Source of the DNA: Kofleriaceae bacterium
GTDB taxonomy: Bacteria; Myxococcota_A; Polyangia; Haliangiales; Haliangiaceae
DNA: 64,000 nt
Direction of reading: 5' to 3'
Assembly (NCBI GenBank): GCA_020633495.1
Contig: JACKDR010000001.1
Location: 246,105 to 310,104 of the forward strand
A model generated the notes under the pieces. That model did no database searches. It saw nothing but the letters and a program-made list of their open reading frames with translations, and was not told where the DNA came from. Made by a program: the position numbers and the translations under genes. Position 1 is the stretch's first letter; the number at the start of each line of letters is the position of its first letter. This document shows positions 3,752 to 48,884 of the stretch, one piece after another.

Positions 3752-5812
3752 CTACTTCGCGACCGGCGCGAAGGTGTAGACGTGCTGCCCGGCGTCGAGG
3801 ATGAGCGGCGCGCGGCCGTCGTCGCCCGGCTCGCCGGGGCGCAAGGTCAGGCCGGCCAGCGGCGCGCGGGTCGTGATCAGCTGTGACACGCCGTCCTTGC
3901 CGACCAGCTGGGTGACCTCGCTCTGCCACTCGCCGGCGTCGAGGAGGAAGACCTTGCCCTTGCGCGTGATCTCGATGCGCCCGAGCCCGGGATCGACGTA
4001 GGCGCCCAGGCGCGCGGTCAGCCAGGCGTCATCGGGCGGCTCGGGCAGCTGCGTCTTCAGGTCGGCGAGGGACTCGCGCTGGCGATCCAGCGCCGCGTGC
4101 AGCTCGTCGCTGGCGCGGGCCTCACCGTCGAAGGCGATCTCGAGGAAGCGGCGCCGCACCGCGCCGCGGTAGGCGTTGGCGCCGCCGCCGTTGGTCAGGA
4201 GCACGACGCCGACGTCCTGCTCCGGCAGCATGAACATGTCGGCGGTGAAGCCGAGGGTGTTGCCGCCGTGGTGGACGATCTGCACGCCATGGTCGTTGGA
4301 CAGGAACAGGCCGAGCCCGTAGCTGTCGTCGTCGTTGATCTTGACCTGCGGCTCGCGCCGGTGCAGCAGGTTGGCCTCGGTGACCAGCTGCTTGCCGTCG
4401 GGCGTCTTGCCGCGCGCCAGCTCGAGCTCCATGAACCGGGCCATGTCGCGCACGCTCGACCACGCGGCGCCGGCCGGGCGGAGCGGCACCAGCGCGGTCT
4501 CGGCCGCGACCGGGATCGCGCCGTACTCGAGCGTCAGGCCGCGGCTGTGCGGCCCCGCGTGATCCGCCTTGGCGACCTTCTTGAAGTCGAACGTCGTCGA
4601 CTTCATCCCGAGCGGCTTGAACACCAGCGTCGCCATCGCGTCGTCGTAGGCGGGCCCGAGCTTCTTCTTGGGCGCCCACGCGTGGGCGCCGACGTAGCCG
4701 CCCGTCGCGACCAGCAGGTTGGAGTACTGGAAGGTCTCGCCGAAGCCGGTGGTCGGCACCATCGTCTTCATGCTGGCGAGGCGACGCTCGGCGTCCCAGC
4801 CCGCGTACTCGAAGATGAACTCGAGATCCTGGCGCGGCATGCCGGTGCACGCGCAGATCGTGTGGTGCAGCTGCAGCTGCTGGGTCATCGCGGCGTCGCC
4901 GAGCGCGAAGTCGGGCAGGACGTCGGTCACCGGCGTGTCCCAGGCCAGCTTGCCCTGGTCGACCAGCCTCGCCAGCATCAGCGTGGTCAGCGACTTGGTC
5001 GTCGAGCCGATCATGAACAGCGTCGAGGGATCGACCTTGTCCTTCTTGCCGAGAACCCGCACGCCGTGGCCGGCCTCGAGCACGATCTTGCCGCCGTGTA
5101 CCACCGCGATGGCCGCGCCGGGGACGCCGGCGAGCTGCCGCGCGTCCTCGACGAAGGCGTCGAACCGGGCGAGGTGGTCGGCGTCGAGGTTGGCGGGCTT
5201 GCCGGCGAACGACTCCTGGTCGACCCCCGGCACCTTCATGTCGAGGATGAGCGAGCCCAGCTGGGCGCCGCGGCGATCGATCGCGGCCTGCTCGCCCTGG
5301 ATCAGCACGATGTGCCAGACGGTGCCCTTGCGGCGCGCCACCGCCACCACGTCGCGGTGCTCGGCGGCGGGCGTGACGTAGATGATCTGGGCCACCTGGT
5401 CCCAGCCGTCGGTCGCCGGCAGGTCCACGGCCTGGTCGACCGCGAGCGAGAACGCGGGATCGACGACCAGCCAGGCGGCGGCGACCGCGGCGTCGCGATC
5501 CTTGGCCTCGAGCGCGAGCAGCGCCACGTGCAGGTCGCGCTCGGGATCGTCGACGCGCACCACGCCAGCGGCCTCGGCGACGAACCACGCGGCCGGGATC
5601 GTGACGATGGCCTGCCACGACGTCGTGATCGGGGTGTCGGCGTCGACCTGACGGTACGTCGGCCCCGCCGGCGTCACCGGCGGCGCGTCGACATCGGCGA
5701 CGGGCGCGACCGGCGTCGGGTCGACCGGGCGCGGCGAGGTGCCGCCGCCACACGAGATCAACAGGGCGGCCAGCCCGAGGGCGGTCGTGCGACGCGCTGG
5801 GTGCGTGTTCAT
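3752..5812 (-). CDS. Serine hydrolase of the beta-lactamase / penicillin-binding-protein (class C-like) family, lipoprotein
   Basis: 686 aa. Signal plus lipobox (LLISCGGG). Beta-lactamase-fold SxxK motif in ...STLFMIGSTTKSLTTLMLARLVDQGKL. Long N-terminal extension domain. Confidence 0.8.
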   Translation of the reverse strand: MNTHPARRTTALGLAALLISCGGGTSPRPVDPTPVAPVADVDAPPVTPAGPTYRQVDADTPITTSWQAIVTIPAAWFVAEAAGVVRVDDPERDLHVALLALEAKDRDAAVAAAWLVVDPAFSLAVDQAVDLPATDGWDQVAQIIYVTPAAEHRDVVAVARRKGTVWHIVLIQGEQAAIDRRGAQLGSLILDMKVPGVDQESFAGKPANLDADHLARFDAFVEDARQLAGVPGAAIAVVHGGKIVLEAGHGVRVLGKKDKVDPSTLFMIGSTTKSLTTLMLARLVDQGKLAWDTPVTDVLPDFALGDAAMTQQLQLHHTICACTGMPRQDLEFIFEYAGWDAERRLASMKTMVPTTGFGETFQYSNLLVATGGYVGAHAWAPKKKLGPAYDDAMATLVFKPLGMKSTTFDFKKVAKADHAGPHSRGLTLEYGAIPVAAETALVPLRPAGAAWSSVRDMARFMELELARGKTPDGKQLVTEANLLHRREPQVKINDDDSYGLGLFLSNDHGVQIVHHGGNTLGFTADMFMLPEQDVGVVLLTNGGGANAYRGAVRRRFLEIAFDGEARASDELHAALDRQRESLADLKTQLPEPPDDAWLTARLGAYVDPGLGRIEITRKGKVFLLDAGEWQSEVTQLVGKDGVSQLITTRAPLAGLTLRPGEPGDDGRAPLILDAGQHVYTFAPVAK

Positions 5813-24435: not shown

Positions 24436-25245
24436 TCACCGCGCGGGGCGGCGCTTCGCCTTCGGCTTGGTCGGCGCCTTCGGCTTGGTCGGCGCCTTCG
24501 GCTTGGTCGGCGCCTTCGGCTTGGTCGGCGCCTTCGGCTTCGCGAGCGCCTTCGGCTTCGCGGGCGCCTTCGCCTTCGCCCTGCCCTTGTCACGAGTCGG
24601 CGCGGCGGCGGCCCCGGCCGGCGCCGTCGCCGACCCGCCCGGGCGGTTGATCACCGCGCGCCGACCCGCCACCGGGTGCCACGGCGGATCGTCGGCGGTG
24701 ACGTAGCCGCCGCCCTCGAGCCGGCCGATCAGCGCCTGGCCCCACGCGATCTCGGCGGCGAGCCGCGCCTCCATCAGCCACAGCATCTCCTTGACGTGCT
24801 CCGGCGAGGTGTCGGGCTGGAAGTGCTCGATCGCGAACCGCATGTGCTCCTGCATGCCGCCGATCTGGGTGATGCGGTGGCGCAGCGCCGCGATCAGCTC
24901 GTCGCGCCGCATCGCCGACATCATGCTGAGCGCCGGCATCAGCGGATCGAGCGGCTGGCCCACGGTCCACCAGGTCTCGCGCAGCAGCTGGCCGAACTCC
25001 TGCTCGCCCTCGGCGGTGAGCTGGTAGCTGGTGCGCTCGGGCCGGCCGCCGACCTGCGCGGTGCCGACGATCTCGATCAGGCCGTCGCGGGTCAGGCTCT
25101 TGAGCGCGTTGTAGATCGAGCCCGGTGACACGTTGCCCCACTCGTCGGCACGCCAGGACAGGAGCTCGCGGCGCACGTCGTAGCCGTGCACCGGCTGGAA
25201 CATGCGCACGACCCCGAGGACCAGCAGGCGGGTGGACGACGACAC
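24436..25245 (-). CDS. PadR-family transcriptional regulator with histone-H1-like KPKAPT repeat tail
   Basis: N-terminal winged helix LLVLGVVRMFQPVHGYDVRRELLSW...SIYNALKSLTRDGLIE (PadR). C-terminal AKAKAPAKPKALAKPKAPTKPKAPTKPKAPTKPKAPTKPKAKRRPAR, encoded by 18-bp tandem DNA repeats. Confidence 0.8.
   Translation of the reverse strand: MSSSTRLLVLGVVRMFQPVHGYDVRRELLSWRADEWGNVSPGSIYNALKSLTRDGLIEIVGTAQVGGRPERTSYQLTAEGEQEFGQLLRETWWTVGQPLDPLMPALSMMSAMRRDELIAALRHRITQIGGMQEHMRFAIEHFQPDTSPEHVKEMLWLMEARLAAEIAWGQALIGRLEGGGYVTADDPPWHPVAGRRAVINRPGGSATAPAGAAAAPTRDKGRAKAKAPAKPKALAKPKAPTKPKAPTKPKAPTKPKAPTKPKAKRRPAR
24458..24565. repeat. 18-bp tandem repeat (gccttcggcttggtcggc x4 perfect, plus degenerate copies) encoding the KPKAPT tail of PadR
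   Basis: Perfect units at 24458..24475, 24476..24493, 24494..24511 and 24512..24529, then diverged copies. Confidence 0.8.
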
Positions 25246-46271: not shown

Positions 46272-46697
46272 GTGAAGCTCACCACTGCGTTTCTGTTCGC
46301 GTCGTCGATCACCCTGGCTGCCTGCGGCTCGAAGAGCTCCGGCGGCAGCACCATGGCCGCCGGCCCCACCTGTGACGGCGCCGCCGCCAACCTGTCGGCG
46401 GAGATGAACTCCCAGTCCGGCGGCGACATGGGCGCCGACGGGATCGCCAAGGTGTCGTCGCTGATCTCGCAGGCGTGCACCGAGGACGGCTGGTCGAGCG
46501 AGGCCGTCAAGTGCTTCGCCGAGTCCCAGGGCGAGGCCCTGCAGGGCTGCGAGAGCATGCTGACCCCGGAGGCCAAGGACTCGCTGGGCGAGCGCATGGC
46601 CAAGATGATGGGCAGCGAAGGCGGCATGGAGGGCGGCGACGACGGCATGGGCGAGGACGACGGCATGGGCGACGAGGGTGGCGGCGAGGACTACTAG
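46272..46697 (+). CDS. Small secreted 4-Cys lipoprotein, paralog family member C
   Basis: MKLTTAFLFASSITLAAC lipobox; shares GPTCDGAAANLSAE and QACTEDGWSSEAVKCFAE with members A and B. Acidic Gly/Met-rich tail. Its stop codon lies inside the left terminal inverted repeat of the adjacent repeat element. Confidence 0.55.
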   Translation: MKLTTAFLFASSITLAACGSKSSGGSTMAAGPTCDGAAANLSAEMNSQSGGDMGADGIAKVSSLISQACTEDGWSSEAVKCFAESQGEALQGCESMLTPEAKDSLGERMAKMMGSEGGMEGGDDGMGEDDGMGDEGGGEDY

Positions 46698-47330
46698 AGC
46701 GCATCTCACAACCGGGTCGCGCCGCACGCTTCGCTTGGAGCGCATCTCACAACCGGGTCGCGCCGCACGCTTCGCTCACGCCGAGCGGAGCCCGAGCGGC
46801 GAAGCCGCGAGGGCGCAGTCGAGGCGGCGGGCCGCGGCCGGAACCCCGTCGGCGACGGCGGAACGTCTCGGCGCCCGCCCCCTCGACTTCGGGGTCGCGG
46901 CTCCGCCGCTCCCCCTCCGCTCCTAACGAACCGCTGGGCCAAGCCGCTGATCTTGCGTGGCGCAGCGATCGGCTGACCGCCGGTTTGGGCCTGACCGCAC
47001 TCACCCCGAGCGGAGGGGGAGGTGCGCAGCACCGACCCCGGAGTCGAGGGGGCGGGCACCGGTGCGCCGCCGAGACCGCACCGATCCACGCCCTCTCGAC
47101 TACGCCCTCGCGGCTGCGCCGCTCGGGCTCCGCTCGAGGTGAGCGAACCATGTCGACCAGGCGACCTGACCCGGTTCGTCTTGCGGCAGATCTCCGACGG
47201 CCGTCGGTCGAGCGCTCGAGGTGAGCGAACCACGTCGACCCGGCGACCTGACCCGGTTCGTCTTGTGGCAAATCTCCGACGGCCGTCGGTCGAGCGCTCG
47301 GGGTGAGCGAGGTTGTGAGATGCGCTCTAG
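46694..47330. mobile_element. MITE-like non-coding palindromic repeat element with 20-bp perfect terminal inverted repeats (CTAGAGCGCATCTCACAACC ... GGTTGTGAGATGCGCTCTAG)
   Basis: Left TIR 46694..46713, right TIR 47311..47330. The interior is a long imperfect inverted repeat; for example, ccgagcggagcccgagcggcgaagccgcgagggcg on the left pairs with the reverse complement of ccctcgcggctgcgccgctcgggctccgctcga on the right. A 39-bp direct repeat occurs twice on the left (46697..46735, 46738..46776). An ~82-bp direct repeat occurs twice on the right (~47140..47305). GC is lower than in flanking DNA and there is no coherent coding frame. Confidence 0.5.
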
Positions 47331-47366
47331 CGTCGCGTGACGCCGCGGCGGCGCCCGCCGCCGCGG

Positions 47367-48884
47367 TCACCGGCTGCCGTACAGCACGGTCAGATCGGTG
47401 GGCACGAACGGCGACGCGACCTCGTCCTGGCCGGGCGCGAGGTCGCAGACGAAGCCGTCGAGCAGCGCGCCAGGCTCCCACGTGATGTCGCACGACAGCC
47501 GCAGGCGCTGCGCGGCCAGCCCGGTGTCGAGCTGGATCAGCTGGTACTCGAAGGTGACCAGCGTGAGGCTCGGGATCACCGGCGGGCCGCCGCCGTCACC
47601 GCCCGACGGCTCGGTGAGGTAGCCGGCGGCGACGACGATCGCCGCGTGCTCGCCGTCGGGCAGGATCGCCAGCCGCGACGCCGCCGCGAGGTCCGAGGTC
47701 ATGACGATCAGGACGGTCTGGCCCTGGCCGTCGAGCGTGGTGGCGCGGGCGCGGCCCTCGAGCGTCGGCAGCGCCACCACCGTCGGCGTCCCGCCGGTGG
47801 CCGGCACCGACGCCAGGGTCAGGTGGGCGTCGGCGCCGTCGACGTGACCGGTCGCCCAGACCCGGCCCCGCGCCGCCGCCACCGCCGACGCGCCGGGCAG
47901 CTCGAGCAGCGTCGTCGGTGCCGCCGCGCCGGGCGCGACGCGGACCACGCGATCGCCGCACGGCAGGACCACCAGCACGGCGCCGTCGTCACCGACCGCG
48001 ACGTCGCCGGCGGGGCCGCCGAGGTCGAGCGTCGTCGGCGCGGCGCCGGCGTCGGCCAGCGCGATGCCGCGCAGGCGGGACGCGCCGCCGCAGAACAGGT
48101 TGTCGAGCGGCGCCTCGACGACCCACGCGGTGGCGTCGTCGACCGCGACCGCGCCCGCCGGTCCGGTCGCGACGAAGCGCGCCGGCGTCGCGGCGTGGGC
48201 GCGCAGGGCCGCGACATCGACGATCGAGACCCCGGTCGGCGGCTCGCGGTGGCTCGCCACCGCCCAGCGCCCGTCGGTCGACAGCGCCAGGTCGTCGACC
48301 GGCCCGGCCAGCGTCACCGCGTCGGCGCCGTCGAGCGCGTGGGTCGCGGTCGACACCACGCGCAGCGCGTCGCCGGCGACGACGACCACGCCGGCGCCGT
48401 CCGGCAGCGCCGCGGCCGCGTCGACCGGGCCGGCCGCCGCGATCGTCGTGGCGTAGGCGTCGCCGGGCGCGCCGCCGGCGTCGGCGGCGAGCAACTCGGC
48501 GCCGCCGGCGACATAGGTGAACGGGCGCCGCAGGTGGATCGGCACCTCGACCTGCGCCCCGGCGACGACGTCGACCGGCGCCGCGGCGCGCCCGTAGGCG
48601 ACGACGCGGCCCGACGCCACCACGCCGGTGAGCGCGAAGCGGACGTCGTCGCCGACCGGCAGGTCGCCGAAGTCGAGGTCGGCGCCGCGGCCGGGGTCGC
48701 GCACGGTCGCGGCGTGCACCACCGCGCCGTCGCGCTCCGACGTCAGCGTCAGCGCCGCCACCGGCCGGGTCAGCGGATCGAGCGCCGGGTCGTCGGGCAC
48801 GTCGACCCGCACCGCGACGCCGCCGGGGTCGGCGCAGCCGGCGGCCAGCAGCAGGCAGCCCAGGACCTGGCGTCGCGCCGGCAT
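47367..48884 (-). CDS. Hypothetical secreted lipoprotein (possible beta-propeller/repeat fold)
   Basis: MPARRQVLGCLLLAAGC lipobox; 505 aa; repeated ...G.VVVAGDALRVVS.../...VAVGDDGAVLVVL... strand-like blocks. Confidence 0.55.
   Translation of the reverse strand: MPARRQVLGCLLLAAGCADPGGVAVRVDVPDDPALDPLTRPVAALTLTSERDGAVVHAATVRDPGRGADLDFGDLPVGDDVRFALTGVVASGRVVAYGRAAAPVDVVAGAQVEVPIHLRRPFTYVAGGAELLAADAGGAPGDAYATTIAAAGPVDAAAALPDGAGVVVVAGDALRVVSTATHALDGADAVTLAGPVDDLALSTDGRWAVASHREPPTGVSIVDVAALRAHAATPARFVATGPAGAVAVDDATAWVVEAPLDNLFCGGASRLRGIALADAGAAPTTLDLGGPAGDVAVGDDGAVLVVLPCGDRVVRVAPGAAAPTTLLELPGASAVAAARGRVWATGHVDGADAHLTLASVPATGGTPTVVALPTLEGRARATTLDGQGQTVLIVMTSDLAAASRLAILPDGEHAAIVVAAGYLTEPSGGDGGGPPVIPSLTLVTFEYQLIQLDTGLAAQRLRLSCDITWEPGALLDGFVCDLAPGQDEVASPFVPTDLTVLYGSR

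Follow-up and report, generated by a model that had tools for sequence, protein, structure and literature searches.

Bacterial non-autonomous transposable elements (MITEs) of the IS630/Tc1-mariner type are flanked by TA within CTAG and have a short, palindromic, non-coding body. Within the IS5 family, the IS427 group includes elements captured in Paracoccus (IS1248, ISPaes1, and ISPpa6) that are 832–865 bp long and have inverted repeats of 13–21 bp, a 2-bp duplication, and frameshifted ORFs (PMC3281130). BrickBuilt of Porphyromonas gingivalis is a MITE with tandem repeats in its body, no transposase remnant, and terminal repeats like those of IS5-family elements in its host (PMC4596501). No paper on the IS5-type insertion sequence (IS) and MITE family presented below was found for myxobacteria in the literature searched.

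Here, we analyzed a 64-kb stretch of Kofleriaceae DNA (the window, to which all coordinates refer unless a locus is named), in which a palindromic element lies between two convergent genes. The original prediction had offered three readings of it: a non-autonomous transposable element, a structured antisense or small RNA locus, or a recombination hot spot. The first is favored by ends that are those of an IS, by the TA/CTAG flanks, by a related locus that lacks the element, and by a partial copy elsewhere; nothing was found to support the recombination hot spot. Judged on its sequence features, the element is probably (at about 80%) a MITE that would be mobilized in trans by the DDE transposase of an IS of the IS5 family, IS427 group, which is widespread in Myxococcota. 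It belongs with a known kind of element, the IS5/IS427-derived MITEs, and what is unusual is its size, its foldback of ~300 bp, and its duplicated terminus. The nearest published analogue that we found for a MITE combining IS5-type ends with internal tandem repeats is BrickBuilt, which differs by its 23-nt minisatellite, its variable target duplications, and its other phylum and base composition (PMC4596501), whereas the window element has 41- and 82-bp repeats in two to three copies and a foldback body.

Position and ends of the element

The upstream gene (46272–46697, forward strand) codes for a putative lipoprotein of 141 amino acids with a signal peptide and a LAAC lipobox. The convergent gene on the other side (47367–48884, reverse strand) codes for a 505-aa hypothetical protein that is 100% identical to a protein of an NCBI Kofleriaceae MAG; an exact look-up of this protein in the contig indexes found nothing on record. 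The 669-bp gap between them is almost wholly filled by the element, which spans 631 bp (46697–47327) between two TA dinucleotides (46695–46696 and 47328–47329). The left terminal repeat had been predicted to overlap the stop codon of the lipoprotein gene, and this is the case, the TAG stop at 46695–46697 being composed of the left TA flank and the first base of the element. As this base is a G, the stop codon is rebuilt and the gene stays intact.

Two features of the immediate surroundings were also recorded. The C-terminus of the lipoprotein (46610–46694) is an acidic tail rich in Gly, Asp, Glu, and Met that derives from imperfect 18–21-bp tandem repeats and is not alignable with the tail of the orthologue. 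A stretch of 36 bp (47330–47366) separates the element from the stop codon of the 505-aa gene and contains a small palindrome (GCGTCGCGTGACGC) with no counterpart in the relative described below (L062), where the two genes abut.

The perfect 20-bp terminal inverted repeats of the original prediction were recovered: CTAGAGCGCATCTCACAACC at 46694–46713 is the exact inverted match of 47311–47330. The core of this repeat is the 17-nt sequence GAGCGCATCTCACAACC, found at 46697–46713 on the forward strand and, without any mismatch, at 47311–47327 on the reverse strand, so that the two ends agree at 17 of 17 positions in the core and at 20 of 20 when the flanks are counted. Three sites in the 64-kb window match this core (46697 and 46738 on the forward strand, 47311 on the reverse strand), all of them within the element, where 0.2 would be expected; no other was found in the window even with three mismatches allowed. 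Likewise, the window holds only two pairs of perfect 20-bp inverted repeats separated by at most 1 kb, both in the element, compared to a mean of 0.03 pairs in 30 dinucleotide shuffles.

The left TA, a putative target-site duplication, is part of a CTAG (46694–46697), and the right TA, its putative counterpart, is followed by a G, a flank pattern shared with other family members and with the full IS. The chance of a 2-bp TA flank taken alone is 1/16. Without the element, the site would read GACTAC-TA-GCGTCG and would itself be a CTAG, the reconstructed junction being GACTACTA joined directly to GCGTCG. CTAG had been proposed as the duplicated target. Since several family members are flanked by CTA...TAA or CTA...TAC, what was duplicated is most likely only the TA of a CTAR-like site and not the whole CTAG; duplications in the IS427 group are likewise 2 bp long (PMC3281130). 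A 4-bp CTAG duplication is the alternative way to parse the window element.

Internal architecture of the element

The two internal duplications predicted for the element, a 39-bp unit on the left and a unit of ~82 bp on the right, are both present. The left end is tandemly duplicated with a period of 41 bp (46697–46776; 39 of 39 positions identical; 2.0 copies at 100% in Tandem Repeats Finder). As a result, the left terminal repeat is present in full a second time, at 46738–46754. On the right side lies an 82-bp repeat (47131–47310) in 2.2 copies that are 94–95% identical (94% in Tandem Repeats Finder), and every copy opens with the motif CGCTCGRGGTGAGCGA.

Between these repeats, the interior had been described as one imperfect inverted repeat able to form a hairpin of ~300 bp, and the arms bear this out. 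The left arm (46766–46922, with sub-arms at 46766–46829 and 46869–46922) and the right arm (47008–47152, with sub-arms at 47008–47061 and 47089–47152) are separated by a mostly unpaired central region that would form the hairpin apex (46923–47007), and over 226 positions the left arm matches the reverse-complemented right arm at 85%. The best pairings are from arm to arm (88% and 87%), each arm alone being a weaker palindrome (~75%), which makes the body a single long foldback.

The element is slightly poorer in GC than the window as a whole (0.729 compared to a mean of 0.755), a dip that is not significant, as it falls at the 19th percentile of 631-bp windows; the lower GC content noted in the original prediction is thus not a distinguishing feature. 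The GC content at third codon positions is 0.72–0.75 in all six frames of the element, compared to 0.96–0.97 for the flanking genes. This flat profile, without codon periodicity in any of the six frames, indicates that the element is non-coding. The predicted absence of a coding frame hence stands in substance; there are long ORFs across the element, but at 75% GC this is the case everywhere. No real protein homologue of the element translations was found, the only matches being translations of repeats. No tblastn match to a transposase query was obtained in the window, element included. At 631 bp, the element is under 1 kb and has neither a transposase nor coding capacity.

An insertion sequence and short MITEs with the same ends

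An exact scan for the 17-mer in one genome per GTDB species returned 58 loci (L004–L061), mostly in Myxococcota MAGs (Kofleriaceae, Polyangiales, Nannocystaceae, and others), with several loci per genome. TA stands directly before the 17-mer in 24 of the 33 Myxococcota matches (CTA in 21 of them) and in 2 of the 17 matches in other phyla, and the latter look like chance matches for this reason.

A transposase with matching ends, the search for which had been suggested as a check, is encoded by an 880-bp IS that was found twice in a single Polyangiales MAG (L013 and L035). The ends of this IS are GAGCGCATCTCACAACC and GAACGCATCTCATAACC, and its flanks are CTA...TAG. Its terminal repeats are 17 bp long, begin with GAG, and are identical to each other at 15 of 17 positions. 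The left core of the window element is identical to one end of this IS. Two overlapping ORFs are present, matching DUF4096 (1e-27) and DDE_Tnp_1 (2e-14) in Pfam and the IS5-family transposase model transpos_IS5_3 in NCBIfam (9e-30 and 6e-35). In Kofleriaceae, another IS (L008) also carries the exact 17-mer, and the N-terminus of its transposase is 73% identical to that of L013; the IS of a further Kofleriaceae MAG (L068) ends with GGTTATGAGACGCGCTC followed by TAG.

The sequence of the 880-bp IS matches the IS5 family, IS427 group, the choice of this group over the IS1031 group being based on its features: a DDE_Tnp_1 domain with an N-terminal DUF4096, a length of ~800–1000 bp, short repeats, and 2-bp TA flanks. 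It resembles IS1248, ISPaes1, and ISPpa6 of Paracoccus in size, repeats, 2-bp duplication, and ORFs (PMC3281130). The window element, in contrast, lacks a transposase and shares with the 880-bp IS nothing but its ends and its target signature. Because the repeat goes with an IS5-family transposase, the element is not an IS630-type MITE, and the IS630/mariner origin that the TA-in-CTAG setting had suggested was rejected. The transposase family is large, with 5,946 database matches at E < 1e-30 in many phyla, and none of the matches listed could be assigned to the host MAG.

The same 17-nt ends also bound TA-flanked non-coding elements of 97–204 bp, mostly 158–163 bp. Within single genomes, these short MITEs are 89–96% identical at different loci (L021/L042, L039/L048, L041/L051/L056, and L015/L030), and their presence in multiple copies indicates that the 17-nt terminal repeat drives MITE amplification in Myxococcota. 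Several of them (L017, L019, L021/L042, L034, L039/L048, L041/L051/L056, and L047) share with the window element the ends, the CTA...TAG flanks, the lack of coding sequence, and the intergenic position. The window element differs from them by being about four times larger (631 bp compared to ~160 bp), by its unrelated interior, and by its long palindrome, its duplicated left end, and its 82-bp tandem repeat. Beyond the ends, no similarity was found between the interior of the window element and the 880-bp IS or the ~160-bp MITEs.

Another family member, of 188 bp, in a groundwater Deltaproteobacteria MAG (L025:244–431) has a long GC-rich internal hairpin (with CCGTTCGTCCTGAGCGAGCG and CGCTCAGGGCGAACGG along it) that resembles the arms of the window element in style, with no alignable similarity found. 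The exact 17-nt end is kept across several Myxococcota families, and the linked transposases that were compared are only ~60–73% identical; such an exact end alongside diverged transposases hints at either a strong constraint on the ends or a horizontal spread of the IS.

A partial second copy at an unrelated site

No further copy of the element was found in the 64-kb window by blastn and motif searches, so that it is present there once. We searched a protein collection with the translations of the element, to catch ORFs mis-called on other copies. The minus-strand frame found one real partial copy, within H6699_11165 of another myxobacterial MAG (GCA_020633575.1). At this locus (L064, contig JACKDI010000038.1), positions 5192–5511 are 93% identical (300/321) to positions 47–367 of the element. 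The flanks are unrelated to the window and the adjoining genes differ. The similarity breaks off no more than 2 nt from the outer edge of a terminal repeat that has decayed (GCGCGTCTCACGACC); this copy has a single 41-bp unit, and its other side is truncated. As the copy is not orthologous and its homology ends at the terminal repeat, the body moved together with the ends at least once.

The other searches for copies added nothing to this. A metagenome scan for the repeat followed by nine degenerate subterminal bases gave 0 matches, and a scan for the interior 21-mer common to all arms gave three, all short and due to chance. Exact look-ups of three other element ORFs in the contig indexes found nothing on record, and the protein search with the plus-strand frame found only a weak match (E = 1e-4) to an unrelated repeat translation (P0146). 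The latter, a protein of 296 aa from the representative library, consists of four tandem units of ~70 aa (with IVIPTGARRAAAGGAEESCRSRPEPRRGRQDPSASLGMTGGV in the repeated part) and looks like the translation of another GC-rich repeated DNA element.

Two further observations concern the L064 locus. Residues ~65–167 of H6699_11165 (P0025, L064:5001–5504), which make up most of its C-terminal two-thirds, come from translating the partial MITE copy. The N-terminal part resembles the end of a genuine ORF upstream, now continuing into the element, and the protein probably reflects either a truncated gene or an artefact of annotation. Moreover, other mobile DNA is present in this neighborhood: a gene of 490 aa whose product has Mu-transposase C-terminal and Y4rL_C domains (L064:7343–8815) lies 2 kb from the partial copy.

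These results bear on the best-surviving alternative, in which the element would be a dead, single-copy relic: what is left, after internal rearrangement, of one inserted IS, without any amplification or movement as a MITE. The window does hold just one copy, the database searches gave a single additional one that is partial and decayed, and neither tblastn of the window nor the matches listed tied a partner IS to the host genome. However, a remnant of this kind is at odds with an interior that is unrelated to the IS and keeps no trace of its transposase, with ends that have stayed perfect (17/17, and 20/20 with the flanks) while the arms diverged to 85%, and with a 93%-identical copy at a non-orthologous site whose homology ends at the terminal repeat. 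We consider this origin unlikely.

The orthologous locus and the fold of the element

The closest available orthologous locus (L062, from Logan SRR10580904) has the same convergent gene pair and no element. It comes from a distant relative, the 505-aa protein being 62% identical and the lipoprotein 44%, both at the amino acid level, and its junction is not alignable with that of the window; the locus thus bears on the presence/absence polymorphism at the orthologous site and not on the exact TA duplication. In L062, the genes abut with zero spacing at 2738–2743, where TAG is directly followed by TCA (GACTGGTAG joined to TCACCGGCTGCC). This arrangement leaves no room for a terminator between the two genes.

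The folding of the whole element that had been proposed as a check was performed on the single-stranded DNA and gave −255 kcal/mol (z = −14.9). A fold this extreme, placed exactly between two convergent genes that abut without a spacer in L062, where a separator could thus be useful, might suggest that the palindrome evolved in the host and was kept for its function, as a bidirectional terminator, a 3′-UTR stabilizer, or a small or antisense RNA, the IS-like ends being secondary. Yet the covariance models of Rfam gave 0 matches at the gathering score in the whole window, no sigma-70 promoter motif or U-tract terminator was found in the element, and the orthologous site lacks it altogether; these same results speak against the small or antisense RNA locus of the original prediction. 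A host structure would also have to account for ends identical to those of a transposon within the TA/CTAG flanks of the family, and for the same body lying beside unrelated genes in L064. A host origin is hence improbable.

The left junction in independent assemblies

Three Logan contigs, assembled from the short reads of independent runs, contain the exact lipoprotein and reproduce the left junction without change. All three contigs stop 25–26 nt into the element, that is, 3–4 nt before the point at which the internal duplication alone would force a break at k = 31. Because the contigs break this early, further copies in these samples are suggested, the sequences concerned sharing CTAG and the left end.

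Long-read assembly is known to fail at long palindromes. That the element would be a palindromic chimera of this sort, within a MAG contig as long as 662,764 bp, is nevertheless very improbable, given that the left junction and 25–26 nt of the element are exact in three independent short-read assemblies and that half of the body recurs at 93% identity in a separate MAG (L064).

Proposed history of the element

Under the MITE reading, one end region would first have been duplicated in inverted orientation, giving a palindromic, non-autonomous body. Replication slippage might then have enlarged this body through duplications of the 41-bp left end and of the 82-bp right subterminal unit. The left-end duplication would be recent, as its copies are 100% identical and it is absent from the L064 copy. 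A transposase of the IS427 group would have bound both terminal repeats and inserted the element in the CTAG overlapping the lipoprotein stop, duplicating the TA. More speculatively, the ~300-bp hairpin may also end or stabilize the transcripts of the two convergent genes.

A bolder interpretation, which we hold only tentatively, is that the 17-nt end could define an undescribed MITE superfamily of Myxococcota driven by the IS427 group. The window copy could then represent a rare "giant foldback" stage that captures the birth and growth of an element, by an inverted duplication of one end followed by the duplication of an entire functional end, which would leave two alternative left termini; or else the hairpin could have been recruited to separate the two convergent genes or to act as their terminator.

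The value of these results is mainly practical, as they imply no new mechanism. They account for the 669 bp that separate the two genes, and at least one annotated "hypothetical protein" (H6699_11165) is partly the translation of a repeat. TA followed by GAGCGCATCTCACAACC can serve as a search key for IS5-type insertion sequences and MITEs across Myxococcota. In addition, the oversized palindromic copy with its perfectly duplicated end is a case from nature in which MITE growth through internal duplication can conveniently be followed.

Other repeats in the window

Inverted repeats at ~19.4–20.2 kb and 25.3–26.2 kb of the window were considered as further elements and rejected, as they are GC-rich, low-complexity coding sequence. 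The strongest short-period tandem repeat of the window is an 18-bp unit (CGCCTTCGGCTTGGTCGG) present in 6.7 copies at 93% identity (24457–24576), and it is probably coding.
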